From: Parcubacteria group bacterium
GTDB taxonomy: Bacteria > Patescibacteriota > Minisyncoccia > Phycocordibacterales > UBA2135
DNA: 64,000 bases
Assembly: GCA_016204045.1 (NCBI GenBank)
Contig: JACQLQ010000004.1
Span: 100,927 to 164,926 of the forward strand
Direction: 5' to 3'
Shown: positions 7,216-29,255 of the stretch, in pieces
Layout: the number at the start of each line of letters is the position of its first letter
How positions within the stretch are numbered: position 1 is the stretch's first letter
The notes under the pieces: generated by a model
What the model was told of the DNA's origin: nothing
Database searches by the model: none
The model's input: the letters and a program-made list of their open reading frames with translations, nothing else
Program-made: the position numbers and the translations under genes

Positions 7216-8250
7216 ATGCTTGCGCGTCTCAAAGAACCATTTGAGGCACTTCGTGGTGAGAACGGCGCGTTCATTGCCGCGCTGCACAAGGATTACCACA
7301 CATGCTATCTTCGAGACCATCTGTACGCTACCTTTGCATACTTCTTCCTTGAGGAGCATGACAAGTTTAGGCAAGGCATGTGGCTCACCTTTGACATCTT
7401 TCATAAACACCGCCAAAGGATTAAGCGGATTATAGAACACCCTCCCAAAAATGGACATGAATTCCTCCATGCGAAATATGATCCAGAAACACTTGGGGAG
7501 ATTGAGCCGTTTTTTGGACATCACCAGTTAGATGCGTTAGGGCTTTTTCTCTTTATTGTTGGTTTCGCGGAGCAAAATGGTCTTCCTCTCGTCAGGAAAA
7601 ATGCGGACAAGGCAATGCTTAATCTCCTGGTGCTCTATGTCCGCGCAGTAGAGTATTGCAAACGTGGAGATAACGGTATGTGGCAGGGGGAGATGGCGCT
7701 CCATTCGTCTTCTGTCGGGGCCGTTCTCTCTGGCCTTGTGGAGTTGAAGGCAGCAAAACTTGTAAAAGTTCGGAATCCGCTTATTGCAAATGGGATAACC
7801 GCGCTTGACGCTCTTGTTTTGGAAGAGCCTCCCGGACTAGCACAACTTTCGCTTATTTGGCCGTATGATATCGTCACCCCTGCTGTCCGTAATGAAATTC
7901 TCTCCAAAGTGTCGAAAAAATTGGTAGAGAAACATGGTCTAAATCGTTACTTCGGAGACGAATACTATCGCTCTAGAGCAACCGGCATCTCTGCCCAATG
8001 GCCACTCGGCTTCTTCTGGCTTTCCATAATCAAAAGTGAACTCGGCGACACGAAGGACGCGCGTCTATGGTTTGAGCGCGGCGCGGCGCAAATAACGCCC
8101 GCGGGTATTCCCAAGCTGTACACGGACGATACCCCAAACGACCATGTGCCCCTTGCGTGGGCACATGCGCTTGCAATTATTGCGTATACAAAACTTCAGA
8201 ACAAAGCTGCTCCCAAGGATAACAATCACAGTGAGGACGCAACATCATAA
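7216..8250 (+). CDS. Glycoside hydrolase family 15 (glucoamylase/trehalase-like) (alpha/alpha)6-barrel protein, short form
   Basis: GMWQGEMALHSSSVGAVLSGL and the surrounding helical repeats resemble the GH15 catalytic domain. Strong SD AAGGAGGG ends 5 nt before the ATG at 7216. Confidence 0.55.
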   Translation: MLARLKEPFEALRGENGAFIAALHKDYHTCYLRDHLYATFAYFFLEEHDKFRQGMWLTFDIFHKHRQRIKRIIEHPPKNGHEFLHAKYDPETLGEIEPFFGHHQLDALGLFLFIVGFAEQNGLPLVRKNADKAMLNLLVLYVRAVEYCKRGDNGMWQGEMALHSSSVGAVLSGLVELKAAKLVKVRNPLIANGITALDALVLEEPPGLAQLSLIWPYDIVTPAVRNEILSKVSKKLVEKHGLNRYFGDEYYRSRATGISAQWPLGFFWLSIIKSELGDTKDARLWFERGAAQITPAGIPKLYTDDTPNDHVPLAWAHALAIIAYTKLQNKAAPKDNNHSEDATS

Positions 8251-17777: not shown

Positions 17778-17971
17778 GGTTCCTCCTGTTTTTGATTGCG
17801 GAGTCCATTCCGCAACTCTTCTAAAATTGTAACCTATTAAAACTGATTTGTCAAAGATTTATTGTGGTTTTGGGTGCTCCTAAAGGGGGTTTACAAAGCA
17901 ACTAAAGTATTATTTAATGTGTTAGACGTCAGTCCTATAAAAACACCAAGCCTTAACAAATGAGGTTCCCA

Positions 17972-19804
17972 ATGGCAGAGCCCTCCCCCAAGACCGTCCT
18001 GATCGGGCCAGCCGTGGAAACGCTCTTCGCAAGGAGCGTGGAATCCCCCTGGCCCCAAGACATACTGAACGATCCCGATTTGGTCCTGCACTCTGAACTT
18101 CGACAGAAGCTATGTACGGCACTCGACACGCTGTACAAACAGCTACCCGATTCACGTATGGATATTGCCGCGGCTATTGAAATGAGAATCGTCGGGGCAG
18201 ACGCGGTAGCAGAGCTCTATCGGCTTCTCACGGAGTTCCTAGACATTGATCCGAATCATCGTCGGCTCGTGTTGTATCTCCCGTTTGAGCTCCTCCCCCA
18301 CGCAGGTTGGAACCCAGCTTCCAATCTACTCCGCACATCTGCGAAATTGTTTGTAGATTCCTACATGCGCTCTTGGCGAGAGTTACTTGAGGAGACACAC
18401 GTACGAGCCAACTTTGATGACGGCAACATCCTCGAGCCAGCACTCGCCCCGAACGGACAACCCAGAGTCTCGAAGGCGGCACACCTCATCCCGCAACTCA
18501 TGCGCAAGGGACTTATCTCCCCCGATGAAGTGACGGCACTTAAGGACAGTACTTCAAGCGACATCCTGAAAGAGAGTATTGTGGAGGCGCTTTCCGCATT
18601 GGAACCCGTGCTTAAGGCTACGGCCAAGAAAGAACCAGACCATCTTACTTCCTTAAAGGGCTTACCCGACGCAATTGCCTTCGATCTGAAGAAACTCGAC
18701 ATGCGCGAAGCGCTCGACCGTTCGCGAGGCATGCCTGGGGCACGAGTCACATGGGAACGATCTGACCGAGAGGATGCACTTATCTCGAACTACGCTACAC
18801 GCATTGCGGAGGCGTTCTCGAGAAACAGCATCGTATGGGAGGATCTGGCAAAACTTTTGTCCCACACCAACAAAGTGATATGTCTCACCGCAATGCGCGG
18901 AGTACGCCTGGCAGTAGAAGCGCTGGCGGACACCGAGAGAGAGCGGGCGCTAGGCCTTTGTGTAAAATTCGGTGCGCATATCAGGGTAGACATGCCGAAC
19001 GTCTCGGATTTCTCTGATGAACTAGAGAGTCTACTCGCACATTGGGCACACCTTGGATTCGTCACCGAAGGAGACCTGCAGAAGTTCGGGTTCGCCTTGC
19101 CGAGATTGGACGCTCCATTCTCGGGGGCGGGTGCTCTTGCCTCTGACCTTAGAACATTCGACAATGTCACTTCACGGATCGCATCTGACCCAGAGCTCTC
19201 GCGGCTTTTCTATCCAGTGGCAATCTTCTTTGGTTCGCGCCTCAAAGGCTACGCCAAGAAGAATGCTGATCTCGATGCCGCAGTCTTCGTGCGACCCGGC
19301 GTCTTGGAGAGCGAGCTCGGAAAAGTGCGACGTGTGCTTGGGGAACTCTTTACCGGGCGAAACATAGACGGTAAGGTCGTCCAATTCTGGCTTGAGGCTC
19401 GAAAAGGAAGTCTTCACATACGTGACTTACCGGACCCCGATGTCCTTCTTGGTGACAGTACTTGGGTACACCTGCTTTTGGGGAGCGTGTGGCTCGGAGA
19501 AGAATCGGCAGTCCGAGAACTCTATACCAGACTGCTTCCTGGGTTCCTGCGCTCCATAGACAAGATGTCTGATGGACGTAGTATTCGAACATTCTGGCTC
19601 GATGAAATGGAGCGAGAAGTCCTGCAATACCGCTTGCTCCACAAAGGATATGGGCGGTTCTTCCCGCGGAGACTTGGGAAGGTGAACCAGGGTAGTATCG
19701 GACCCAACCCGGAAAGCACGTTTTGGGATTCGGGATACAGACGACTTGCAACAAAGCTCTTTATCTCCCGGGTATTTCTACCCCAATTGAAAACAGTTAT
19801 ATAG
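17972..19804 (+). CDS. Large hypothetical protein with embedded Pol-beta-superfamily nucleotidyltransferase motif
   Basis: FFGSRLKGYAKKNADLDAAVFV fits G[GS]-x9-13-DhD. An ATG at 17972 is preferred over the ATG at 17960, because GAGG lies 8 nt upstream of 17972. Followed by a bidirectional terminator. Confidence 0.55.
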   Translation: MAEPSPKTVLIGPAVETLFARSVESPWPQDILNDPDLVLHSELRQKLCTALDTLYKQLPDSRMDIAAAIEMRIVGADAVAELYRLLTEFLDIDPNHRRLVLYLPFELLPHAGWNPASNLLRTSAKLFVDSYMRSWRELLEETHVRANFDDGNILEPALAPNGQPRVSKAAHLIPQLMRKGLISPDEVTALKDSTSSDILKESIVEALSALEPVLKATAKKEPDHLTSLKGLPDAIAFDLKKLDMREALDRSRGMPGARVTWERSDREDALISNYATRIAEAFSRNSIVWEDLAKLLSHTNKVICLTAMRGVRLAVEALADTERERALGLCVKFGAHIRVDMPNVSDFSDELESLLAHWAHLGFVTEGDLQKFGFALPRLDAPFSGAGALASDLRTFDNVTSRIASDPELSRLFYPVAIFFGSRLKGYAKKNADLDAAVFVRPGVLESELGKVRRVLGELFTGRNIDGKVVQFWLEARKGSLHIRDLPDPDVLLGDSTWVHLLLGSVWLGEESAVRELYTRLLPGFLRSIDKMSDGRSIRTFWLDEMEREVLQYRLLHKGYGRFFPRRLGKVNQGSIGPNPESTFWDSGYRRLATKLFISRVFLPQLKTVI

Positions 19805-19814
19805 TAAATAAATA

Positions 19815-19842
19815 AGGGCAGTGAGTATCTCACTGCCCTTTT
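19815..19842. terminator. Bidirectional terminator between convergent genes
   Basis: agggcagtgag-tatc-tcactgccct followed by TTTT. Confidence 0.55.
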
Positions 19843-21257
19843 GTAATATCTATTTTATCTTGTTCCGTCGGACCGATAGACACGGCAGCGACGGGAACAC
19901 CAAGATTTTTTTGTATTGTAGAAACGCAAAGATCAATGAACGACTCCTTCGCATTCCCAGAGGGAATGACATGCGTCGTAAGTTTCGGTCTGCACTTGAG
20001 AAGTGCCTGGCCAAGCTTTTCTTGGCGCTGAAGGTGCTCTGCCCCTTCAGCGTCTTTCCGAGCCTTAATCCCCGTGACGATTCCTCGATCGATCTTCAGA
20101 AGATGCTCTGCATCTGGCACGTTGTCGACAATATCATACGCGTCGCACACCTGCCATGATCCCCTGCTCCATATCCGATCGAGACATGTAATGACGAGGT
20201 CATCGATTGCTCCGGGACCGCATGCTTCCAACGCGTAGCGGGCGGCCAACATGTCGAAATGTCCGACACGGAAGTTGCCCTGCCATGGGTGTTCTTTGTT
20301 GACGGCATCTGGCAACTCTAATGCAAGCTCGGACGCTTCAGTGACAAATGGACCTCCGCCGTGCCGCGTGTGATAGGCGCGGAGAATGCCCAAACTTTGC
20401 ACAGCTCCATCATAGTCGCATTCGCGCAAGATGCTCTGCGCCATTTGGGGAATCGTGCGCACTTTCGTCGTATGCGGATGAAAGCCCTGATACCGATCGA
20501 GGAGTACTCCTTGAGAACCCTCAAAGACTACTGTCCCCTCTCTACCAAGTATCTTTTCTGCCACGTATGTATCGTCGACAATGCGCACCTGCCCCACAAG
20601 GTCACCGAAGCGTTCGACTGCCCACTCGACGGTATCGGAATCTTCCATGTCTGCAAGTTCGGCAAGGACACGATGGCGCACATCGGGTGGAACAGTGCTT
20701 GCGCGATCCGCAAATTCCTCGAACTCCGTCCATTTGCAGCGCTGAATGGCTTCCAATTTCTCTCGTAGCAGATCAGTGTTATGCAAATCCTTGATCCTAA
20801 TAGCTCCATCGTTCAAGACTTCGGAGTCAAGCACCGTCTCGCCGACACCAATACCGACAGAGCCGCGTCGCCCCTGGCCACGCATGAGTTCGCGGACACG
20901 GCCGGCAATGGCTTGAAATGGAGTGATGACAAGAGCGTCTTCGTGAATGGTCATGATGTCCAATGCACCGCGAACACCACTCTTCTCTCGCAACCATTCT
21001 TCTTCTTTAAGTATCGCAGCCGGATCGACGAGCATATGCTTCGAGAGATGCGTACCTGCACCCTCAAATGTGCCGGAGCCAAACTGCGAGAAGACGTGCT
21101 CTCTGCCATCTCTACACACCACGTGATGCAGGGCTTGCGGCCCGCCTGTGCGAATCACTGTGTGCGCTTTGTGCTTGCGCGACAACCAGTGCGTCGTAGT
21201 ACCCTTGCCTTCATCTCCATACCCGAGTCCTGTCACTATAAACGCTTTTCTCGTCAT
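19830..21257 (-). CDS. purA: Adenylosuccinate synthetase
   Basis: N-terminal P-loop GLGYGDEGKGTTTHWL matches the GDEGKGK family signature. Length is 475 aa. SD AAGGAGGA precedes the start. Confidence 0.85.
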   Translation of the reverse strand: MTRKAFIVTGLGYGDEGKGTTTHWLSRKHKAHTVIRTGGPQALHHVVCRDGREHVFSQFGSGTFEGAGTHLSKHMLVDPAAILKEEEWLREKSGVRGALDIMTIHEDALVITPFQAIAGRVRELMRGQGRRGSVGIGVGETVLDSEVLNDGAIRIKDLHNTDLLREKLEAIQRCKWTEFEEFADRASTVPPDVRHRVLAELADMEDSDTVEWAVERFGDLVGQVRIVDDTYVAEKILGREGTVVFEGSQGVLLDRYQGFHPHTTKVRTIPQMAQSILRECDYDGAVQSLGILRAYHTRHGGGPFVTEASELALELPDAVNKEHPWQGNFRVGHFDMLAARYALEACGPGAIDDLVITCLDRIWSRGSWQVCDAYDIVDNVPDAEHLLKIDRGIVTGIKARKDAEGAEHLQRQEKLGQALLKCRPKLTTHVIPSGNAKESFIDLCVSTIQKNLGVPVAAVSIGPTEQDKIDITKGQ

Positions 21258-21326: not shown

Positions 21327-22439
21327 TTATAGTTTCCAATCCGGCTTCTCTTTACCTTTGGGGGCCGGCTTCTTGTCCTTTGACTTTGAACGCGGAGGAG
21401 AACCCTTTGTCCCGATCGGCCAGATGTCCTCGCGGCTCGCAAACGTGGCACCCGCCATAGGAATCTTGTCGAAATTCGGAAGCGTAGTCTGAAGACCAAT
21501 GGGAATTCCAGAACATGCCTCGACGATACGCTTCGCTTCGGAAGCTGTGACTTTAGCTTCCTTGAGGAAGTCGACTGCGCTCTGAAGATCGAGTACACCT
21601 TCGGTGAGTCCGATGATGACGGCCTGTACTTCGGCAAGGTCTTCTGTCTTTGGCAACCGAATAACACGTTCCTCGCCGAGGACCTTCGACCACCACTCTG
21701 CGGTGTAGCGATTGTTTCCAACCTGCAGGAAAAAGCCATGCCAGTTTCGGAGCAACTTCTTCGCGACTTCAACCGTCGAAGGCAATGACTGGGGTGAACC
21801 CTTACCAAATGCCTTTTCGAGGACTGATGGTCCGAAGACCTGCTCAAGCACTCGCCCATCGAATGAATCGCGCCCAATCTCATCGCCTACCGAGAAGTAG
21901 TAGCCACGAAGCCCGTACTCGGTAATTGCTGCCCTGGTGAGATGTGCTGCTGCAAAAAGTCCGAGCTGATAATCTTCGGTGGAATCCCCACCACTTCTCT
22001 CGGGAACCAAGAGCCCCATCTGCCGTTCGACTTCATTGTCTGGCTCGAACATGGAACGCTGGTAGGGAAATTGATCAACACGGTCCTGCACGACGCCGGT
22101 GCACAACTGTGCGTGATAACGGCGCAATACTGCATTCCCACCCTGTATGAGCAGATTCTGCACCTTGGGCTGCACCTTGAAAGCAATCTCCACGTTGCCA
22201 CCCATTGAGCCAGTCGTATCGACATCCGTCTCGACGGGTATCGCGACACCGAACTTGAGCTCAAATTCATCGCTCCCGGGTACGGGCACGAGAAGGTTGT
22301 TCGCTTCGCGGATGACACCCCGCTCTTTGGGGTCCACAAGAGAATCGAGGCCTTTGCCTTGTTTGGCGCGCTGTTCGCCCTCAAATGTTACCGAGCCAAG
22401 CTTTTTCGCCACAGCGGCTCTCGAAGTATAGTCGGCCAT
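21327..22439 (-). CDS. von Willebrand factor A (vWA) domain protein, paralog 1, with Lys-rich ...WKL C-terminus
   Basis: MIDAS-like DVDTTGSMGG. Shares several blocks with the ORF at 23808..24854 (GGxxxxY, GDEIG/GDEG, RVIRLPK/RVILLPK, KGKExxxWKL). Start at the ATG at 22439 is a best guess; the listed ORF runs to 22538. Confidence 0.55.
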   Translation of the reverse strand: MADYTSRAAVAKKLGSVTFEGEQRAKQGKGLDSLVDPKERGVIREANNLLVPVPGSDEFELKFGVAIPVETDVDTTGSMGGNVEIAFKVQPKVQNLLIQGGNAVLRRYHAQLCTGVVQDRVDQFPYQRSMFEPDNEVERQMGLLVPERSGGDSTEDYQLGLFAAAHLTRAAITEYGLRGYYFSVGDEIGRDSFDGRVLEQVFGPSVLEKAFGKGSPQSLPSTVEVAKKLLRNWHGFFLQVGNNRYTAEWWSKVLGEERVIRLPKTEDLAEVQAVIIGLTEGVLDLQSAVDFLKEAKVTASEAKRIVEACSGIPIGLQTTLPNFDKIPMAGATFASREDIWPIGTKGSPPRSKSKDKKPAPKGKEKPDWKL

Positions 22440-22717
22440 AGAGAATGTGCCTTTAGTTCTCACGGGCGGTCTCCTTGTGAAAGAGCTTTTTCGCCGGAAA
22501 TCACTGTCTTGTGTTTCGGCGCCACCAGCAGTGTACATCGCTTGTCGACCCGTGTCAAAACTGGTCTCTAGGGGTCGCTCGCTCTCTACACGTGGTGTCT
22601 ACTTGGTATCGTATCAGGAAGAGAGTAAGTGTCAAGTATACACTATGTTACAACCCAAAGGCTGGTGTGAGTCAACAAAAAACCTGGGGGGTCGTCCCAG
22701 GTTGTTACTTCTATGTA

Positions 22718-23656
22718 TCAGATCGGATTGGCGGTCGTATATTCCTGCCAAAAGGCAAGCGCTTCTTTTGAATGCTCGCGAGAAATCTCATCGCACAGCA
22801 TGAAGTGCTTGAAGCCCAGTATACGCATCAACTCAATGTCGGAAATATCCGCCATAGAGACTCCTCCCCCATCAAGTCCCAGGAGAAGGCGTGAGGCACA
22901 GATCGCGCGCGGATCTTTCTCTGCAATCTCGCGGAGTGCACCGACCATTTTCCCCACACCAATCTGAATCATCAAATCATCGCGCGCAGCCATCAGTCGA
23001 TACGGACTGCCGTTTGAGAAATGCTTTTGCTCAAGCCCGCGCACGAACTCAACTCCCGCTTGTGATTCGATCTTCAATACAATTTCGCATTCTTCAAGAG
23101 ACACCGCTCCTCGAGAATGCCGCTCGATGGCTTCTTCGAGTTCACGAACATCATCCCTGCTTTCGATAAAAGAAAGCATGAACCGCCTAATCCCCTGTTC
23201 CAGTGCCGCTTTGATATATTCGTGGTCGAGAGGAAGAAGACCGCCCTCAATCGTAAGTCTCTTGGCGAGTATGTTCACTGACTGCCCCTTGCCGACGAAT
23301 TTCGGTTTGGAGTCTACAAAGAGCTCATTACCACGCCGCACCTCACGGAGTTCACACGGCTGATCGCCACGCAAATATACTGTTGCTGGCAATTCTACCG
23401 AAATACCGTGGTTGAGGATAATCGGGCTATCGGGCACCACAGCCCATTCGATAATGCGGAGTTGTCTACCCTTCAAATCAACATAGAAAGGCTTATTGAG
23501 CGGCTTTGCAAGCGCTTGAATGCGCTCCAGTGCCCCATATGGGCCGCATACAGACTCTACTCCTGTGTTGTATCGAACTGCTTCAACAATCGGATTCGCA
23601 ACAATCGATCGCAAAAGTTCACTCTGGTGTACGGGCGGTAAGCTAGAGATGAGCAT
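22718..23656 (-). CDS. Standalone PK/HpcH/CitE-superfamily (beta/alpha)8-barrel protein (pyruvate-kinase-barrel-like)
   Basis: IVLKIESQAGVEF and LMAARDDLMIQIG match the pyruvate kinase active-site signature (KIEN...MVARGDLG), which is also seen in HpcH and CitE. At 313-319 aa it is too short for a full PK. Confidence 0.5.
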   Translation of the reverse strand: MLISSLPPVHQSELLRSIVANPIVEAVRYNTGVESVCGPYGALERIQALAKPLNKPFYVDLKGRQLRIIEWAVVPDSPIILNHGISVELPATVYLRGDQPCELREVRRGNELFVDSKPKFVGKGQSVNILAKRLTIEGGLLPLDHEYIKAALEQGIRRFMLSFIESRDDVRELEEAIERHSRGAVSLEECEIVLKIESQAGVEFVRGLEQKHFSNGSPYRLMAARDDLMIQIGVGKMVGALREIAEKDPRAICASRLLLGLDGGGVSMADISDIELMRILGFKHFMLCDEISREHSKEALAFWQEYTTANPI

Positions 23657-23807
23657 GGGCAATGTCTCCCCTACCACGGACTATCTGCACAAGGAATACC
23701 ACATATATTGCACTCATGTCAATGTCTATGTGTTTAAGTATTGCAATAAAAAACCGCAAGCGATGCGTCGCCTGCAGTGTGCTATCTCTCTAGCTTCTAT
23801 GTGTGTG

Positions 23808-24854
23808 TTAGAGCTTCCAGCTCTGGTCTTTGTTACCCTCATCCTTGCCCTTAGCGCCTGGCTTTTTCTTTTTCTTCGTCCCGGTATCTTTGGGCGGGTC
23901 TTCATCTGAGGTCGAACGCGCAGCCTTGATTGGCTTGAAGTTCTTTAGCGGCTCAAGTGCTGCCGCGACCTGGCGAATGCGTTCAGGCGACTGTGGTTCG
24001 TAGACAACATCTTGTCCCAAGTTGAGTGGCCGTGTCCGCATATCTTCCAGGTACTCGGCAAGAGTTCGCGCGCCCGAGACGATAGCGTAGACCCCGAGCG
24101 TGACGTCGCCAATGGCAAGGTCGCCATCGTCGCCCTTCGGGAGTAGGATCACCCTATCCCTACCAAGAGCTTCGCGCCATTCGCTCACAATGCGAGCATC
24201 CAATTCGTTTGGATAATGCCGATGAATGAGCAACGCATTACCCTTAAATTTCTTCACAAGATCAGCAAACACCTTGTTCGCGGTCGTATCCTGGTGCTCT
24301 CCACCAAAATGTTCGCTAAGATCCGCACCATAAAGTTGCGGATAGAATCCCTCATCTCCCGTGAAGAGGAAAATGGGCACTTCGGCGTTCGGCATGTCAA
24401 AGAGGTATGCATAGTAATACGCGACCACTTCATACGACTCCCTGTGTTGACCGCCACCACCGCCCTCAAAGTAAATTTTCTTGAAGTACTTATCGAGGTT
24501 CCGTAAGGCGGAAAAGTCTGCCATTTGGAGCGGGGCATTATCCCAGGTGATGTCACCAACCGCGGACAGACTCATCTCGGGTTCCCGAAGATAGTCACGC
24601 GCTACAATCTGACCAACAATGCCTGGCCACTTGTCGTAGATGATCTTGGGCAGTCTACCCATGGACCCAGTCACATCAAAGGCATAGACCAGAGGGCTTC
24701 GCGCACTGCACACGAGTCTGCGATTTTTTGGCAAGAACGATGGGTCAACTCTCGCCTGGGAAAGGTCTCTCTCTGCAACGCTCGTAAATCCACTTGCTGT
24801 ACGAAGCGCTTTGCTAGTTACGTCACGACCATAGAAGTCGCCGCTACCACCCAT
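23808..24854 (-). CDS. von Willebrand factor A (vWA) domain protein, paralog 2, with Lys-rich ...WKL C-terminus
   Basis: MIDAS-like FDVTGSMGR. SD GGAGGA precedes the ATG at 24854. C-terminal KKKKKPGAKGKDEGNKDQSWKL. Confidence 0.6.
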   Translation of the reverse strand: MGGSGDFYGRDVTSKALRTASGFTSVAERDLSQARVDPSFLPKNRRLVCSARSPLVYAFDVTGSMGRLPKIIYDKWPGIVGQIVARDYLREPEMSLSAVGDITWDNAPLQMADFSALRNLDKYFKKIYFEGGGGGQHRESYEVVAYYYAYLFDMPNAEVPIFLFTGDEGFYPQLYGADLSEHFGGEHQDTTANKVFADLVKKFKGNALLIHRHYPNELDARIVSEWREALGRDRVILLPKGDDGDLAIGDVTLGVYAIVSGARTLAEYLEDMRTRPLNLGQDVVYEPQSPERIRQVAAALEPLKNFKPIKAARSTSDEDPPKDTGTKKKKKPGAKGKDEGNKDQSWKL

Positions 24855-24984
24855 GGGAGATCCTCCTTTCAAGGATCTTGTGTAGAAACTGCCCTCACCA
24901 TAACGGAAGGATGCTCCATTGTCAATAATGCCAAAAGAAAAAGCCTCGGCATGAATATGCCGAGGCGTATGACGATAAAGAACG

Positions 24985-26955
24985 TTAGGCGACAGCAACG
25001 GCTTCGCCACCGTTGACGATATTCCGCGCCTCGATTTGCGCAATGATCTCGGCTCCACCCGGAACCAAGTCGCGCTCCTTAATATCCTCGATAATCTCTC
25101 TCGCATTTTCGGGCAAGAGTCTGCGAGAAGAAGACTCTGAAATCGCAAGAAGTGTCATGAGGTCAATCTCTGTTTGACTCGCCGAAGGAATGAAGTCCTC
25201 GATCGATGCCCGAAGTGCCTCATCATCAACCTTGTCCTTGCGCATCTCACCCGCAAACTTGAATGCCTTGAGCGTAATCGCTTCAACATCAGCTCCGGAG
25301 CGCCCCTTGACCATTGCGGCGAAGGGGGCAAAATTGGTTACCGAATTCGGAATATCGTATCGGCGAAACATGACCGTAAAGATCGAGGCGATCTCCACCT
25401 CTGTTGGCATCAAAAGCGCAATACGATCATCGCTCCGACCGCTCCGCTTCAGCGCGGCATCCATGCGATCGGGCCTGTTGGTACAGTTGATCATGAGGAT
25501 ACGCCCGCGAATCTTCGGATCAGAAAGGAACTCCATCCACGCGCGCATAATGCGTTCCGAGACACCGGAGTCGCCCTTTGGCGAATCGCGGTTTGCCTCT
25601 CCCAAGTCTACCTCATCGTTCATGACGATGACTGGCGCAAGCGCCCACAGCCCTTGGATCTGAAGCTCGGTCCGTTCTTCGGACTGCCCCACCCACATTG
25701 ACCGCGCGTTTTTCATTCTAACGAAGTTGAAACGAGCGCCCTTGGCGAGAGCCTGACCCAAAGCAGTCTTGCCCGTGCCTGGGGGACCCATAAGGGTAAC
25801 GCCCTGTGGAATGAGACGTATCTCGTTCCTGGTGATAGCATCGATCACGTTCGCAAAGTATCTCTTTACTTTCTCCAAGCCGCCGATCTCATTGAGGCTC
25901 CACTGCGGTTCGACGATTTCCATCACTGACCCATATTCGGCATTCAAGATTTCGTTCTTCCTCGCCTTTACGAAAGAAAGGTCAATTGGACGTTTCGCCT
26001 GCGCGGCAGTACGGAAGACCTCGAGGATCTGCCGCAAGCTCAGGCCTTGTGTCGCGTTAACGAATGCGTTGAGATCAAAATCTTCGGGGACTTCAAAGTG
26101 CGGAGGAAACTCTTGCAGGCGTTCCTCTAGCCCTTCAATCTCCTCTGTTGTCTCACTCTTCGCGCTACCCTTGGCACGCGGAAGCTTCTTCTTCAACGCG
26201 CTCAACTGGGCTTCAATCTCCTGCTCTTCTGGCAGACCATACGCCTGGCGTTCGATATAGCATCTGCGCTCCTCGGCCGTCGGCTTCGGAATAAAGACGC
26301 TACTAATTCTGGCTGATGACTGACGCAACTCACCGGAGACCTTGGTCGCGAGATCAGTAAGAAGCAATACGATATTGCTCCGCTTCTTTACGCGAGAATC
26401 CTGCGCCCACGCACGAAGTCGTGCAATATGCGTCCGCTCCGCAGCGAGAAGCGCTCCACCTGTCGACTCGGGCACAATAAGATGTGCTGATTCGATAACC
26501 ACGGCAACGCGCTCCATATCTTTGAGCACTTTCTCAATGAGGGGCAAGCACAGCTCCGGTTCGCGAGGGAGTTGCCGCTTTGCGGCAAGCCCAGCCTTCG
26601 CGGCGGCAACGGCGTCTTTCGCGGCTTTTGCCGCGTCTTCCTCACTTTGGAGCCCCGCGACCTTGCGAAACTCCCTTTCCATGTCAGGGGTGAGAAAACG
26701 AAGACCTGTCGCGATGTCGTAGAAAATCACCATCTCTTGCGCGCTCAACAAGCGCTTGAAGAACTCGTGAAGTGGAATATACGGATACCGCGGCTCATCT
26801 TCTACTTCTGGGTTTGGCACGAGGCAATTGATGTCACCGTGCAACAAGAAGACCGAGGAGATAGACGATACACCACGATTGAACTTGTCGAGCACTCCCG
26901 CCGTAAACCACGGGGGCACCTTGGGAAGCACTGGGGCGGCGGTCTTGTCTTTCAT
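24985..26955 (-). CDS. Classic-clade AAA+ ATPase with long N-terminal region (possibly a degenerate D1 domain)
   Basis: Walker A GPPGTGKT, Walker B VIVMNDEVD, and second region of homology NRPDRMDAALKRSGRSDDRI. SD AAGGAGA lies 7 nt before the ATG at 26955, 11 nt after the upstream stop. Confidence 0.8.
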   Translation of the reverse strand: MKDKTAAPVLPKVPPWFTAGVLDKFNRGVSSISSVFLLHGDINCLVPNPEVEDEPRYPYIPLHEFFKRLLSAQEMVIFYDIATGLRFLTPDMEREFRKVAGLQSEEDAAKAAKDAVAAAKAGLAAKRQLPREPELCLPLIEKVLKDMERVAVVIESAHLIVPESTGGALLAAERTHIARLRAWAQDSRVKKRSNIVLLLTDLATKVSGELRQSSARISSVFIPKPTAEERRCYIERQAYGLPEEQEIEAQLSALKKKLPRAKGSAKSETTEEIEGLEERLQEFPPHFEVPEDFDLNAFVNATQGLSLRQILEVFRTAAQAKRPIDLSFVKARKNEILNAEYGSVMEIVEPQWSLNEIGGLEKVKRYFANVIDAITRNEIRLIPQGVTLMGPPGTGKTALGQALAKGARFNFVRMKNARSMWVGQSEERTELQIQGLWALAPVIVMNDEVDLGEANRDSPKGDSGVSERIMRAWMEFLSDPKIRGRILMINCTNRPDRMDAALKRSGRSDDRIALLMPTEVEIASIFTVMFRRYDIPNSVTNFAPFAAMVKGRSGADVEAITLKAFKFAGEMRKDKVDDEALRASIEDFIPSASQTEIDLMTLLAISESSSRRLLPENAREIIEDIKERDLVPGGAEIIAQIEARNIVNGGEAVAVA

Positions 26956-26965
26956 CGGCTTCTCC

Positions 26966-27664
26966 TTAGTGGTCATGACGATGGCCATGGCCGTGTTGGT
27001 GGCTCTCCGTGTGGCCGTGCTTGTCACGAGTTTCGCCCGGGAAGGGATCGCCCTGCTTGATTGCGCGCTTCCCAAGGACAAGCTTCACTCCGAGCCGAGC
27101 CGCAAGCGCCAGAAACTTTGCTGTTGCGAGATCGAGCGCCTTGCGTGACTTGAAGTGTTCGAAGACAATCTCGGAGACATCGCCCCGTCGCGTGATCTTG
27201 ATGTAGTCAGAGGGGTGTGATTTCCCTGCCTCTTCGGCTTCGAGCACAAGCTCTTCGCCTTTTTGCGTAATCGTCACCGTGTAATCGAGAAGTTCTGCCA
27301 CAATGCCGAGAATCTCGAATTGCCAACGATTGGAAACAGCCGAGCTTCGTTCACTCAGCCGCGCTTTTTCGCGAGCAGAGGTAAAGCTCCCCTTCGCCTC
27401 AAGCATCCCTTGCGCATTTACGGTGAAATCGAGACCTCCACCGTCCACTTTCGCAAGGGCGCGCTTAAGCGCCTCAGTGAGAAGCGACTCGACGTCTATC
27501 TCATTACCAGTAATCCATTCCAAGAATGTCGAATCTTCTATACCGAGCTTTTCCAAGAGGTCTGCATCGATATCAAGGGCCTTTGCCTTTTCAGTAAATA
27601 CTTGCGGCTGCGGCGCTGGAATTGTGACCTTAGTAACACTTCTATATCCGATATCGCACGGCAT
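26966..27664 (-). CDS. Hypothetical protein with His-rich C-terminal tail
   Basis: 232 aa ending ...DKHGHTESHQHGHGHRHDH. It is the first gene of the AAA/vWA cluster. Confidence 0.5.
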   Translation of the reverse strand: MPCDIGYRSVTKVTIPAPQPQVFTEKAKALDIDADLLEKLGIEDSTFLEWITGNEIDVESLLTEALKRALAKVDGGGLDFTVNAQGMLEAKGSFTSAREKARLSERSSAVSNRWQFEILGIVAELLDYTVTITQKGEELVLEAEEAGKSHPSDYIKITRRGDVSEIVFEHFKSRKALDLATAKFLALAARLGVKLVLGKRAIKQGDPFPGETRDKHGHTESHQHGHGHRHDH

Positions 27665-27782
27665 GCGGTACCACCTTTCCTTTGCGATCGTTCGTATGTC
27701 AACGACGCTTCTGTCCTCGTACTACCACGAAAAAACGCCGATGGCAAGTCGGCGTAGTGGTGTTGTTTCGCTCATCACTATC

Positions 27783-28013: not shown

Positions 28014-28628
28014 TTATTTTAAACCAGTGTGAATATTTTCTGTAGGCCACTCGATGAGCTCGAGTGTAATGGTGCCGTTGTTAACGTTGAATTTTATGAA
28101 GCCGCTATCAAGCACTTTGAGCGCGTCTTCACGCCCTTCGACGTATCGTCGTTCAAGAGCAATCTCCCACGGACGCTCATCTCTCCCCCGAGATAAGTCT
28201 ACATTGTATGCAATCCCCCGAGTGTTGTGACGCGCATATATCTCGTCTTTAAACGCTTCGAGGTTATTCCCTTCGAAAACCCGAGCGACCTCTGGCGGCA
28301 AGGGCGCAACGTCCCCTGCTGCTCTTCCTTTGAGATAGTCGCGGAGTGTTCGTATGACCTCCCTTGAGTCGGGGCGCATTGATTTTGTCTCACCCAAAGG
28401 TTCATCGAAACGTCTATCGATTGCATCGAACTCTTGCGCGAGGAAATCGAGAAAGGCCGCATATGCCGGAGAGTCGGGCTTGAGACGATACGAGCCTTCG
28501 CTTCCACCTCGGCCGGATTCATCTTCTATGCCATAGCTCGCCAATGCCACTTTCGCCCTTTCAATAAATGTGCGGTCGTGGGGAAGAGGGAGACCCTCCA
28601 TTGTTTCAGAACGAAATTGTTCAAGCAT
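28014..28628 (-). CDS. Hypothetical protein (204 aa)
   Basis: Clean ORF. No family recognised. Confidence 0.45.
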   Translation of the reverse strand: MLEQFRSETMEGLPLPHDRTFIERAKVALASYGIEDESGRGGSEGSYRLKPDSPAYAAFLDFLAQEFDAIDRRFDEPLGETKSMRPDSREVIRTLRDYLKGRAAGDVAPLPPEVARVFEGNNLEAFKDEIYARHNTRGIAYNVDLSRGRDERPWEIALERRYVEGREDALKVLDSGFIKFNVNNGTITLELIEWPTENIHTGLK

Positions 28629-28688: not shown

Positions 28689-29255
28689 CTAAAAAATAAT
28701 GAAGCTGGCGACGAGGAAGTAAACGAGAAGACTAATGAGATCTTGGATGATGGTGGCAGTGGGCCCGGACCCCAATGCTGGGTCGATGTGCCGCCTATAG
28801 AGTATGTTCGGAATAAAGAGTGCGAGAAGCGGGGCGATAGAAAGGTTGATAAGCATGGTGAGCCCCACCGTTAAGCCAATGGCGTACGATTCGAGCCAAA
28901 CAACAGAGAAGACTCCGAGTGAAACGGCGGAAATAATGCCGAGCCCGAACCCGACGGCGCACTCTTTGAGCACGTATTTCGTGAGACTAAACTTCTTTTT
29001 TTCGGCGAGTGCACGCACATAGATGGTCTCGGTCTGCGTTCCTAGCGCATCACTCAAATACACAATGATGGGGATGAAAAATGCGAGTCGCACGTCTGCA
29101 GAAAGGATCGCTTCGTACTTCGCAACGATCAGGGTAGCGAGAACGCCTCCAAGGAGTCCGAAGATGAGCCATGGTGTACGGTGTTCGATAAGGTGGTCTA
29201 TCGACTCTTTGTTCACATCTTCTTCCGGATACCGATCTCTAGAATTCATTTCCAT
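28689..29255 (-). CDS. MgtE-like integral membrane domain protein (Mg2+ transporter TM module only)
   Basis: Five TM helices with MgtE-type motifs (GLLGG..., DALGTQTET..., ATIIQDLISLLVYF). Lacks the N-terminal CBS domains. Confidence 0.6.
   Translation of the reverse strand: MEMNSRDRYPEEDVNKESIDHLIEHRTPWLIFGLLGGVLATLIVAKYEAILSADVRLAFFIPIIVYLSDALGTQTETIYVRALAEKKKFSLTKYVLKECAVGFGLGIISAVSLGVFSVVWLESYAIGLTVGLTMLINLSIAPLLALFIPNILYRRHIDPALGSGPTATIIQDLISLLVYFLVASFIIF

Follow-up and report, generated by a model that had tools for sequence, protein, structure and literature searches.

A gene module of an ultrasmall (CPR) bacterium, comprising an AAA ATPase, vWA proteins, a mini pyruvate kinase and a PurA-like ligase, is conserved and apparently undescribed; it lies in the window, the 64,000-nucleotide stretch of Parcubacteria DNA that was analysed. 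Tentatively, we favour reading it as a vWA-scaffolded two-enzyme core for nucleotide chemistry, which would be remodelled in cells by the ATPase and its partner g1 via the vWA tails. The initial annotation had not recognised the combination as a described system, and the analysis matched it to nothing in Pfam, NCBIfam or PADLOC, nor in the literature that could be searched. The genes for g1, the ATPase, a vWA protein and the PurA-like ligase were present in all 11 loci with a close orthologue of the ATPase (the window, L003, L005, L007, L008, L009, L010, L011, L012, L092 and L093), and the mini pyruvate kinase in 9 of them. None of the 75 loci with other AAA relatives carried any module partner. 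A lack of co-occurrence in related genomes had been named as an observation that would speak against a real cluster; co-occurrence was instead strong, and because the same genes are found together in 11 independent loci, the clustering goes far beyond chance.

All genes and sites described below are on the minus strand of the window. Five ORFs were found exactly where they had first been placed: g1 (26966..27664), encoding a 232-aa orphan protein; the AAA gene (24985..26955, ATG start), encoding a 656-aa tandem classic-clade ATPase; g3 (23808..24854), a 348-aa divergent vWA protein of the universal orthologue type; g4 (22718..23656), a 312-aa mini pyruvate-kinase-type barrel; and g5 (21327..22439), a 370-aa second vWA paralogue, which is an accessory and lineage-specific copy. 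The motifs quoted for them (GPPGTGKT, RSGRSDDRI, FDVTGSMGR and DVDTTGSMGG) are all in the translations. These five genes are real, but the cluster extends beyond 21327: g6 (19830..21257), which encodes a 475-aa PurA-fold GTP-dependent ligase and is co-directional with the other five, belongs to it too and had been missed. From g1 to g6 the intergenic spacers are 10, 130, 148, 281 and 69 nt, so that the short spacing described earlier holds only between g1 and AAA, the other gaps reaching up to 281 nt. Good Shine-Dalgarno sequences, also reported, precede 5 of the 6 genes of the extended cluster, that of g5 being weak. The g1 stop codon lies inside the Shine-Dalgarno sequence of the AAA gene in the window, and the g1 stop and AAA start overlap in L005, L011, L092 and L093; judged from the 10-nt spacer and these overlaps, the two genes are predicted to be translationally coupled. 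Terminator-like hairpins with T-runs were located directly 3' of the AAA stop codon (24943..24966), 3' of g3 (23753..23778) and 3' of g4 (22681..22703), and a terminator-like hairpin of 12 pairs (19814..19840) spans the g6 stop codon at the module end, in the 25-nt gap that separates g6 from a convergent gene. Promoter-like sites lie upstream of g3, past the AAA hairpin (24897-24925), and upstream of g5 (22608-22635 and 22530-22558). Both kinds of site come from a consensus scan only, with counts not above shuffled expectation, and their placement alone is suggestive. Considering the hairpins after AAA, g3, g4 and g6 and the promoter-like sites before g3 and g5, one transcript for the whole cluster is doubtful.

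The ATPase has the length of database protein P0001 (656 aa), with 100% identity over 98% of the query. Its assignment to the classic clade and not to MoxR was confirmed: Pfam gave PF00004 (1.3e-21), the best NCBIfam matches were CDC48, PAN and FtsH, all far under cut-off, and the top PDB matches of the C-terminal module were VAT and Cdc48/p97 D2 (1e-47 to 1e-45), with MWVGQSE aligned to the pore loop KWVGESE of VAT and Cdc48 D2. By its motifs the C-terminal half is an active module resembling Cdc48/VAT D2: it contains GPPGTGKT, a Walker B with DE, the arginine fingers of RSGRSD and a pore loop, M-W-V-G, that is invariant. The initial annotation had suggested that the N-terminal half could be a degenerate D1 ring. 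This is plausible, as the half (~350 aa) aligned with the protein's own AAA module by hhalign (E = 0.003, probability 10%) over 202 collinear columns, which include Walker B, sensor 1, the SRH and the start of the lid; it is weakly but plausibly a D1-like degenerate module without a P-loop. Cdc48/p97/VAT and the module ATPase share Walker A/B, arginine fingers, an aromatic pore loop (KWVG/MWVG) and two modules. They differ in that the latter scores 98.9 bits against the cut-off of 802.65 of the CDC48 family model, has no detected Cdc48-type N domain, and has a first module in which the P-loop is missing and which can hardly be recognised as AAA. The partner g1 is an alpha/beta sandwich with near-invariant M-P-C-[D/N]-I-G (N-terminal) and F-E-H-F motifs, in which Cys at position 3 and Glu-His are invariant. 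The His-rich tail noted for the first gene exists in the window but is lineage-specific, occurring in only 3 of 36 family representatives; the hallmark of g1 is the N-terminal Cys together with the Glu-His motif, not this tail.

Outside the CPR, the module was found in Planctomycetes (L005), Deltaproteobacteria (L011) and Myxococcales (L092). The PurA-like gene was linked to it in each of the 11 loci, as well as in three phage groups; no other partner of the vWA protein is as constant, phages included. The phage gene orders were kinase-vWA-88aa-PurA-like in Bxz1-type mycobacteriophages, vWA-PurA-like in Vibrio phage pv27, DnaJ-kinase-vWA-miniPK in the 485-kb phage LR745208 and vWA-miniPK-PurA-like in a 244-kb IMG/VR contig. 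In these four groups neither AAA nor g1 was found alongside the vWA-like gene. The mini pyruvate kinase was not near the ligase in 2 of the 11 loci and in two phage groups. NADAR, ADP-ribosylglycohydrolase and Thg1-like genes occur near the phage sub-modules. The module is surrounded by the core genes rpoB, rpoC, dnaG and rpoD in the window, and by dnaN, ftsH, ribosomal protein genes and murE in other CPR loci.

A conflict system, anti-phage or inter-microbial, would be an unlikely but serious reading of these data. The vWA protein would sense an invader protein, the ATPase would be the switch, and the PurA-like/mini-PK pair would make or destroy a nucleotide-derived signal or toxin, and phages would carry the enzymatic part to counter the system or to exclude superinfecting phages. 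The patchy spread outside the CPR, which suggests horizontal transfer, agrees with this, as do the genes near the phage sub-modules and the weak likeness of the ATPase to the defence ATPase IetA (PADLOC 1.2e-11; NCBIfam 9e-9, 34.9 bits against a cut-off of 510). Moreover, a Ser/Thr protein-kinase gene directly precedes the vWA-like gene in two phage lineages, which recalls the TerY-P triad of vWA protein TerY, Ser/Thr kinase and PP2C phosphatase; however, TerY was not matched in PADLOC or Pfam, the module lacks a phosphatase, and a kinase is missing from the window cluster. PADLOC returned no match for g1, the vWA proteins, the mini pyruvate kinase or the PurA-like ligase, an effector of the nuclease, protease, pore-forming or NADase kind is absent from the module, and in CPR genomes it sits among core genes. 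Its high conservation in Parcubacteria (48-76% identity for the ATPase) resembles vertical, housekeeping-type inheritance in tiny genomes. The defence role proposed earlier is thus left without support by the PADLOC result and the core-chromosome context, and so is a secretion role, since profile searches matched the module proteins to zero secretion-related families.

Of the "PK/HpcH-like" barrel first described for g4, the PK derivation stood and the HpcH type did not. Pfam matched PK at 5e-7 (29.5 bits, cut-off 30) and HpcH at 1e-5, PDB pyruvate kinases matched at 5e-5 with KIE and ARxDL aligned, and NCBIfam PK models gave 37-39 against cut-offs of 306-432. It was the family alignment with E. 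coli PykF that distinguished the two, R-x-N-T, D-L-K-G-R-Q-L-R, K-I-E-S, A-R-D-D-L and A-S-R being kept. Pyruvate kinase and g4 share the A-domain barrel with R-x-N-T, D-x-K-G-x-x-x-R and A-S/T-x, the catalytic Lys and Mg-binding Glu of K-I-E and the Mg-binding Asp of A-R-x-D-L. Pyruvate kinase has ~470 aa and a C (allosteric) domain, whereas g4 has 312 aa, a B (nucleotide-cap) domain about one third as large, and scores under the Pfam and NCBIfam cut-offs. By its sequence, g4 is an A domain with a much-reduced B domain and without the C domain, in which the PK catalytic motifs are kept.

The ligase g6 matched Pfam Adenylsucc_synt over its full length (8e-49) and aligned with solved PurA structures, but reached 135.6 bits against the cut-off of 402 of the NCBIfam PurA equivalog and 42.7 against 300 for PurZ; it is most closely related to phrog_1211 (1e-63), a phage family that is uncharacterised. 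Mapped in Salmonella PurA numbering, g6 keeps D13, K16, H41, Q224, T239, D333 and S414, and so has in common with PurA the full-length fold, the P-loop GDEGKG, the catalytic Asp13 and His41, Gln224 and the guanine-specificity residues Asp333 and Ser414. PurA binds aspartate by T300, T301, R303 and R305, and the IMP 5'-phosphate by N38, T129 and R143. All of these are replaced in g6 (T300 to W, T301 to Q, R303 deleted, R305 to F; N38 to Q, T129 to C/V, R143 not conserved), and the replacement residues are themselves conserved in the family (WQGxFR). The PurZ hallmark, Ser at position 13 (bioRxiv 10.1101/2025.10.22.683976), has no counterpart in g6, which keeps Asp. Because every aspartate contact is lost while catalytic and GTP residues are kept, g6 is neither PurA nor PurZ.

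It is improbable that g6 is the organism's real adenylosuccinate synthetase and g4 its pyruvate kinase, both of ordinary metabolism and beside an unrelated AAA/vWA pair. Divergent housekeeping enzymes are frequent in the reduced genomes of the CPR; the full-length Adenylsucc_synt match, the alignment with PurA structures and the PK catalytic residues of g4 also fit this explanation. However, it has to account for the seven lost contacts with their conserved replacements, for equivalog scores far under cut-off in both enzymes, for a mini pyruvate kinase that has no C domain and little of the B domain, and for a vWA linkage across phyla and four unrelated phage groups that chance adjacency would not predict.

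Two paralogous vWA proteins with MIDAS motifs had been proposed, and the fold match of the g3 model and the conserved residues bear this out. No Pfam model detects g3 or g5 as vWA, g3 having no Pfam match at all; phrog_2971 matched both (g3, 6e-20; g5, 4e-9). The AlphaFold (AF2) model of g3 (pLDDT 84) resembled the vWA domains of integrin beta-I, vWF-A1 and ITIH1 in a Foldseek search of the PDB (E ~1e-6). The g3 MIDAS is complete (D60, T62, S64, S140, D167) and invariant at all five positions, and that of g5, likewise intact, starts with the same D-x-T-x-S; the two proteins are 25% identical (BLASTP E = 3e-7, full length). The bracketing of the barrel by two vWA genes is real in the window but lineage-specific, as most loci have one; L009 also has a second paralogue, and the g5 type is the sole vWA gene in L008. 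Both proteins end on a Lys-rich C-terminal tail, g3 with S-W-K-L and g5 with D-W-K-L, and lysine makes up 21% of the last 35 residues of the vWA proteins versus 5.7% of the body. The g3 tail (313-348) is predicted to be disordered, its residues having a pLDDT below 50. The C-terminal end is W-x-hydrophobic or G-R-hydrophobic in 87 of 115 homologues (28 end otherwise), and is common to within-genome paralogues only 25% identical (window and L009). The end motif was absent from the four phage vWA homologues examined, none of which adjoins an AAA gene; the Lys-rich tail is missing in phage homologues, and the ligase is still next door.

The tails might suggest protein tagging or turnover like that of the Pup-proteasome, in which the ligase would modify lysines with a (nucleotide-derived) group, such as those of the vWA tails or of proteins held by the vWA MIDAS, the ATPase would unfold the marked proteins, and the N-terminal Cys of g1 would be a carrier or hydrolase. 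The lysine content, the loss of the free-aspartate pocket with amine-displacement chemistry kept, the unfoldase type of the ATPase with its threading pore loop and the invariant Cys and Glu-His of g1 are consistent with it, yet we give it little credence. The module has no protease, and no PurA-fold enzyme known to us acts on proteins. Since the phage vWA homologues lack the Lys-rich tail and still adjoin the ligase, the ligase does not depend on that tail as its substrate.

In layout, the module resembles the MoxR-vWA pairs (CbbQ/CbbO Rubisco activase, NorQ/NorD, RavA/ViaA, CoxD/CoxE and BchI/BchD), where an ATPase ring gene stands beside a MIDAS vWA adaptor and next to a presumed target enzyme. 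Those pairs use MoxR, whereas the module has a classic-clade, Cdc48/VAT D2-like ATPase in tandem with a dead D1, vWA proteins that Pfam vWA models do not detect and that bear a Lys-rich tail with a terminal motif, a PurA-fold ligase and mini pyruvate kinase as linked enzymes, and an extra orphan subunit, g1, apparently translationally coupled to the ATPase. The metal-insertion chaperone first suggested, taken as a machine that inserts metal or cofactor in the manner of the MoxR-vWA pairs, Mg-chelatase among them, with metal delivered by the His tail, is highly improbable: the shared layout, the tail of the window g1 and the possible metal binding by its invariant Cys, Glu and His favour it, but both its props fall with the non-MoxR ATPase and a tail in just 3 of 36 representatives, the enzymes found with it are of the Mg-nucleotide type and carry no inserted cofactor, the module is linked to no metallo-cofactor enzyme, and phages keep the vWA protein and enzymes without the ATPase.

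We return to the vWA-scaffolded core as the favoured model. It builds on gene content, conserved linkage, folds and residue patterns, from which we infer interactions, substrates and the direction of regulation. Its first layer would be enzymatic, composed of the MIDAS-bearing vWA protein, the truncated PK-type phosphotransferase and the GTP-dependent PurA-fold ligase, and would be able to travel alone in phages. In the ligase, GTP would phosphorylate a carbonyl oxygen of the acceptor, probably bound otherwise than IMP in PurA, and an amine other than L-aspartate would then displace the phosphate. The mini pyruvate kinase may use PEP to convert GDP to GTP, or for another phosphoryl transfer; this is a chemical guess, and the near loss of the nucleotide-capping B domain in g4 speaks against GTP regeneration, as do the 2 loci and two phage groups in which the mini pyruvate kinase is not near the ligase. 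The vWA protein would be a non-catalytic scaffold or regulatory subunit that uses its metal-ion-dependent adhesion site to grip one or both enzymes. Against the model as a whole, the terminator-like hairpins between genes speak against strict co-transcription, the D1 assignment is weak, and shared ancestry could account for the tail/AAA correlation, because the comparison is between one broad cellular clade and four lineages of phages; besides, 28 of the 115 homologues do not have the end motif. As a working analogy only, Vps4/ESCRT-III, with its recognition of MIM tails, and other classic AAA machines that thread tails likewise combine a classic-clade ATPase, whose pore loop is of the threading kind, and clients with a disordered tail and short conserved C-terminal motif; the module has no MIT domain or ESCRT-III homology, and its tail interaction is conjectural. 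The second layer, in cells only, would pair a tandem AAA unfoldase of the Cdc48/VAT type, its D1 dead and its D2 active, with the Cys/Glu-His protein g1. Together they may recognise the W-K-L or G-R-hydrophobic C-terminal motif on the disordered Lys-rich tail and thread that tail, whereby the vWA-enzyme complex would be disassembled, reset or turned over and the pathway switched.

All five open reading frames that the initial annotation had listed between 21327 and 27664 were recovered when the window was translated, and all lay on the minus strand: the orphan gene g1 (26966-27664), the AAA ATPase gene (24985-26955), the vWA-like gene g3 (23808-24854), the gene g4 for a pyruvate-kinase-type barrel, here called mini-PK (22718-23656), and a second vWA-like gene, g5 (21327-22439). 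Outside that annotation, we found a sixth co-directional gene, g6 (19830-21257), encoding a PurA-like ligase, so the module comprises six genes in roughly 8 kb. The spacers from g1 to g6 measured, in order, 10, 130, 148, 281, and 69 nt, the last separating g5 from g6. The description of the cluster as closely spaced thus held for g1 and the AAA gene, where the TAA stop of g1 falls within the AAGGAG Shine-Dalgarno of the next gene, but not for the other spacers (69-281 nt). A consensus scan placed hairpin-plus-T-run sites exactly 3' of the AAA gene, g3, g4, and g6, and TTGACA-type sites upstream of g3 and g5. Since such sites were no more numerous than the shuffled expectation, they give only a hint against assuming one transcript. 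The window also carries rpoB, rpoC, dnaG, and rpoD, and represents the core chromosome of a bacterium of the Parcubacteria group (CPR/Patescibacteria); the g1 product is identical to a protein listed at NCBI under "Parcubacteria group bacterium".

Three neighboring genes were recorded as well. A 614-aa ORF on the plus strand (17960-19804) converges on g6, with 25 nt between the stop codons; its only hits, to a Pol-beta-type nucleotidyltransferase and to an MntA-like antitoxin, were weak (E values 5e-3 and 4e-4). Directly upstream of the module, across a 349-nt gap with a terminator-like hairpin nearby (27735-27755), a 204-aa ORF (28014-28628, minus strand) had no match in four family libraries. 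In a 188-aa ORF (28689-29255, minus strand), the match to MgtE was confined to the C-terminal transmembrane domain (positions 274-447 of the 450 in the profile); such a protein would lack the cytosolic sensor part and be a Mg2+-channel domain standing alone.

Full-length orthologs of the AAA protein (44-76% identical) were common in Parcubacteria and were also present in a Planctomycete, a Deltaproteobacterium, and a Myxococcales genome. Co-occurrence in related genomes, on which the initial annotation had made its cluster depend, was found: g1, the AAA gene, a vWA-like gene, and a PurA-like gene were linked in 11 independent loci (the window and the comparison loci L003, L005, L007, L008, L009, L010, L011, L012, L092, and L093). 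The mini-PK gene was present in 9 of the 11, and the usual order was g1-AAA-vWA-miniPK-PurA-like. Two vWA genes around the barrel did not prove to be the general layout, as most loci had one gene of the g3 type and the second paralog occurred in the window and L009; at L008 the only vWA gene was of the g5 type, and no g3 remnant was found. The genes flanking the module were housekeeping genes and differed at each locus. None of the 75 loci with other AAA relatives carried module partners; two distant relatives inspected by hand, from Azambacteria (L013) and Gemmatimonadota (L014), had unrelated neighbors and were rejected as module loci.

Parts of the module were carried by four phage groups. 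About 200 Bxz1-type mycobacteriophages had the order Ser/Thr kinase-like, vWA-like, 88-aa ORF, and PurA-like, the last being 36% identical to g6 over its full length. Vibrio phage pv27 had vWA-like and PurA-like genes; a 485-kb uncultured phage had a DnaJ-kinase fusion, a vWA-like gene, and a mini-PK gene; and a 244-kb IMG/VR contig had a frameshifted vWA-like gene followed by mini-PK and PurA-like genes. In these four groups, neither an AAA gene nor g1 was found adjoining the vWA-like gene, which marks the vWA-like protein as the hub that moves with the two enzymes and the AAA-g1 pair as a cellular addition. In the 244-kb viral contig (33% GC; 6968-10039 of L097), a frame change at about 7444-7489 interrupts the vWA-like gene, and a stop codon at about 9472 lies in the frame of the PurA-like gene; possible explanations are misassembly, pseudogene formation, and stop-codon recoding. 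The sub-module of the 485-kb phage (L089, 13221-17116) lies near genes for a Thg1-like 3'-5' nucleotidyltransferase and an ADP-ribosylglycohydrolase, and that of the Vibrio phage (L088, 5212-5862) near a NADAR-domain protein gene; genes of these three types are frequently linked to counter-defense. Very large Ser/Thr protein-kinase genes also adjoin the cellular module in Planctomycetes (L005, 3312-7676) and at a non-CPR locus (L093, 9373-11319). They could echo the kinase-vWA adjacency of the phages or be a coincidence, because the lineages concerned encode many such kinases.

The AAA protein is, by sequence, a classic-clade AAA, as the initial annotation had held, rather than a MoxR-type ATPase. 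It scored 77.8 bits against Pfam PF00004 (cut-off 21.2), whereas the MoxR-type models AAA_3 and AAA_5 gave no match at E <= 0.01. Walker A (GPPGTGKT), Walker B (hhhhDE), and the second region of homology (SRH) with its arginine fingers were visible and invariant across 12 homologs. The best NCBIfam matches were CDC48, PAN, and FtsH, every score being far under its cut-off, and the closest solved structures to the active module were the D2 rings of VAT and Cdc48/p97 (1e-47 to 1e-45). Pore loop 1 (M432-W433-V434-G435) was invariant and aligned to KWVG of VAT D2, about 25 residues past the Walker A lysine, the position used as the criterion for an unfoldase. The protein may thus be likened to the Cdc48/VAT D2 ring in its working, by sequence, but it does not belong to the Cdc48/p97/VAT family by score (98.9 against TIGR01243, cut-off 802.65, D2 region only) or by architecture, which in that family is an N domain and two P-loop rings. 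A P-loop is missing from the N-terminal half, whose profile found no match in the PDB. Nevertheless, the earlier idea of a degenerate D1 ring is plausible, because this half aligns collinearly with the AAA module of the same protein over 202 columns spanning Walker B, sensor 1, SRH, and the lid start (hhalign E = 0.003, with a probability of only 10%).

Phage relatives of the AAA protein, in Rhizobium phage RHph_I4 and cluster O mycobacteriophages, stood alone, with no vWA, PK, or PurA genes nearby, and belonged to other phage groups than the Bxz1-type or Vibrio phages. In RHph_I4 (phrog_8638; L002, 6401-9723), the AAA gene is followed by a 212-aa unannotated ORF and by DUF1257 and DUF2997 genes, which is a different AAA-linked gene set, likewise uncharacterized.

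The vWA domains with MIDAS motifs assigned earlier to g3 and g5 were borne out by structure and conservation. Neither protein matched any family of Pfam or NCBIfam, vWA models included; their sole family match was phrog_2971, a phage family without functional annotation, and the g3 profile found nothing among PDB sequences. The AF2 model of g3 (pLDDT 84, pTM 0.82), however, matched integrin beta-I, vWF-A1, and ITIH1 with a Foldseek probability of 1.0 (E values 9e-7 to 4e-5), and by this model g3 is assigned a Rossmann-like vWA fold. The MIDAS residues D60, T62, S64, S140, and D167 were invariant in 32 g3 homologs and compatible with the predicted strands and helices, and D60, T62, S64, and D167 stayed invariant once phage homologs were added. 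The g5 protein is a full-length paralog of g3 (25% identical). All cellular vWA-like proteins end with a segment of about 35 residues, disordered in the AlphaFold model, in which lysine makes up 21% of residues versus 5.7% in the protein body. The extreme terminus was W-x-hydrophobic (typically [S/D]-W-K-L) or G-R-hydrophobic in 87 of 115 homologs, and the same ending occurred in the 25%-identical paralogs of one genome, both in the window and at L009. The four phage vWA-like homologs examined had neither the tail nor the end motif. Given the tail pattern and the unfoldase-type pore loop, we propose that the AAA protein may engage the vWA tail, the AAA-less sample being these four phage homologs, which are phylogenetically confounded.

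The g1 protein matched no family in Pfam, NCBIfam, PADLOC-DB 2.0, or PHROG, and when 1.84 billion cluster representatives were searched exhaustively by HMM, only 76 relatives and no fusions came up. Its near-invariant parts were Cys3 (M-[P/V]-C), Gly6, and F-E-H-F. Only 3 of 36 family representatives had the His-rich tail that the initial annotation described as metal-binding. The g1 profile retrieved nothing from PDB sequences, each alignment member searched against Pfam at E <= 5 gave just noise, and its fold had no match among viral structures (BFVD) at E <= 1e-3. A relationship to DUF1257, DUF2997, or the 212-aa ORF of the Rhizobium phage was rejected (hhalign probability < 1% each). In Azambacteria (L013, 8291-9624), a methionine-aminopeptidase-type (M24) gene lies directly upstream of a short g1-like gene and the AAA gene; this could bear on the invariant M-P-C N-terminus or could be chance.

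Of the two barrel types suggested for g4, pyruvate kinase was upheld and HpcH was not. When the cellular members were aligned with Escherichia coli PykF, the motifs R-x-N-T, D-L-K-G-R-Q-L-R, K-I-E-S, A-R-D-D-L, and A-S-R were conserved, and the jumbo-phage copy departed from them at single positions. The protein is derived from pyruvate kinase. In the A-domain barrel, it keeps the PEP/K+-site motifs along with the catalytic Lys and the Glu and Asp that bind Mg, but the full A+B+C architecture is not preserved: at 312 aa it has no C domain, and its B domain is about one-third of the usual size. Its scores were below the cut-offs (Pfam PK 29.5, cut-off 30; NCBIfam 37-39, cut-offs 306-432). The HpcH match covered only 61 residues (25.2 bits, cut-off 25), and an HpcH/HpaI aldolase was ruled out by the PK-specific N-terminal motifs and the B-domain remnant. 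The Bxz1 "kinase" gp257, considered as a mini-PK relative, has a Ser/Thr protein-kinase fold and was rejected.

The g6 protein matched Pfam adenylosuccinate synthetase over its full length (8e-49) and PurA in the PDB (1.7e-23). In PurA numbering, it shares with that enzyme the fold, the GTP P-loop, catalytic Asp13 and His41, K16, Gln224, and the guanine-specificity residues Asp333 and Ser414, but lacks its L-aspartate and IMP 5'-phosphate sites. All aspartate contacts were replaced (T300 by W, T301 by Q, R305 by F, with R303 deleted), and the phosphate ligands were changed (N38 to Q, T129 to C/V, R143 non-conserved). These replacements, themselves conserved, were found in the window, in all module-linked cellular members, and in Bxz1, and two other phage PurA-like proteins differed at single positions. 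Scores against the PurA equivalog model (135.6, cut-off 402) and the PurZ model NF038379 (42.7, cut-off 300) were both too low. PurZ of the 2-aminoadenine pathway is recognized by S14, Ser instead of Asp13 (bioRxiv 10.1101/2025.10.22.683976); g6 keeps the Asp, and was rejected as PurZ on this residue as well as on score. The most fitting description of g6 is a GTP-dependent PurA-fold ligase. The WQGxFR loop did not cleanly track a vWA neighbor, since a Rhizobium phage PurA-like protein, near which no vWA gene was detected, has HQG-SIR. The aspartate residues are missing from this protein too, so that the changed site is a mark of the phrog_1211-type clade as a whole. GenBank and PHROG name this clade "2-aminooxy adenylosuccinate synthetase" or "PurA-like adenylosuccinate synthetase" (window 19830-21257; comparison locus L001, 8058-9386; about 200 mycobacteriophage records). 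With the aspartate site lost and Asp13 kept, the residue pattern fits neither PurA nor PurZ. The names "adenylosuccinate synthetase" and "2-aminooxy adenylosuccinate synthetase" are therefore probably wrong, as judged from these residues, which affects about 200 sequenced mycobacteriophages, and "2-aminooxy" has the look of a PurZ annotation that was garbled and then propagated. An apparent PurA-like/Big_5 fusion in Myxococcales (L092, 14921-19282, called as 1453 aa) was rejected: its frame breaks ahead of the C-terminal S-x-GP motif, probably through a sequencing frameshift, and then continues into a lipoprotein gene downstream, whose product has Big_5 and beta-helix-like regions.

The combination of genes has no description in curated family models, the PADLOC defense catalog, or the searchable literature, in agreement with the initial annotation. 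Its layout resembles the MoxR-vWA enzyme-remodeling pairs (CbbQO, NorQD, RavA-ViaA, CoxDE, Mg-chelatase); a jumbo-phage review, too, describes pairs of the MoxR-vWA kind only. However, the defining feature of those pairs is a MoxR ATPase, and the module stands outside them because its ATPase is not of this type. We rate it as an ATPase and a vWA adaptor beside client enzymes, in which the ATPase comes from another AAA clade, the clients are new, and an orphan subunit is added. The gene composition of the module was demonstrated, as were its conserved linkage, folds, and residue patterns; its working can be proposed as follows. The PurA-fold ligase would activate a carbonyl with GTP for joining to a non-aspartate amine; the mini-PK would regenerate GTP from PEP or perform a second phosphoryl transfer; and the vWA protein would use its MIDAS to scaffold or regulate these enzymes. 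In cells, the Cdc48-like AAA protein, coupled to g1, would pull on the vWA tail, and the complex would be reset or dismantled, while in some phages a protein kinase may fill the regulatory position in place of AAA and g1. We infer these interactions, and give the architecture as a whole, a vWA-scaffolded two-enzyme core remodeled by AAA and g1, somewhat less than an even chance.

Our tentative reading of its purpose is a hitherto unrecognized, regulated machine for nucleotide chemistry or biosynthesis, composed of a repurposed PurA-fold enzyme, a PEP-driven mini-kinase, a vWA scaffold, and a Cdc48-like unfoldase gate with a new Cys-dependent cofactor protein; we give it a real chance, though one well below even. 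The amine would then possibly be ammonia, another amino acid, or a protein side chain, and the acceptor a purine-like or other lactam. A conflict system is unlikely: the patchy distribution beyond CPR and the carriage of parts by phages would suit it, but the genes lie in the core genome, vertical conservation is strong, no recognizable effector is present, and PADLOC-DB 2.0 returned no system match, only weak IetA or TRIP13 matches for the AAA protein and none for g1, g3, g4, g5, or g6. Plain housekeeping by PurA and PK has little to recommend it, as substrate residues are lost and the vWA linkage spans phyla, and we considered a protein-tagging or turnover pathway to be of equally small probability. 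The metal-insertion chaperone of the initial annotation, whose observation was confirmed and extended to g6 and whose interpretation stood for the classic AAA and the vWA/MIDAS but not for the His tail or HpcH, is least credible, given a non-MoxR ATPase and a His tail that is not conserved.

Two of the module families, g1 and the Pfam-invisible vWA family, have no functional annotation, and a third, the PurA-like ligase, probably bears wrong database names. CPR/Patescibacteria genomes are tiny, and the module is kept across many CPR lineages, so it likely does something important. The enzymatic half is present in culturable Bxz1-type mycobacteriophages and Vibrio phages, and the full module in Myxococcales and Planctomycetes; therefore, its biology is open to experiment, unlike the CPR host. 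Should the AAA-vWA logic hold, the design of an ATPase, a vWA adaptor, and a client enzyme would have evolved twice, the second time from another AAA clade. If the biosynthetic machine is real, its product would be a nucleotide-derived metabolite or modification worth keeping in many minimal CPR genomes and borrowed by large phages.
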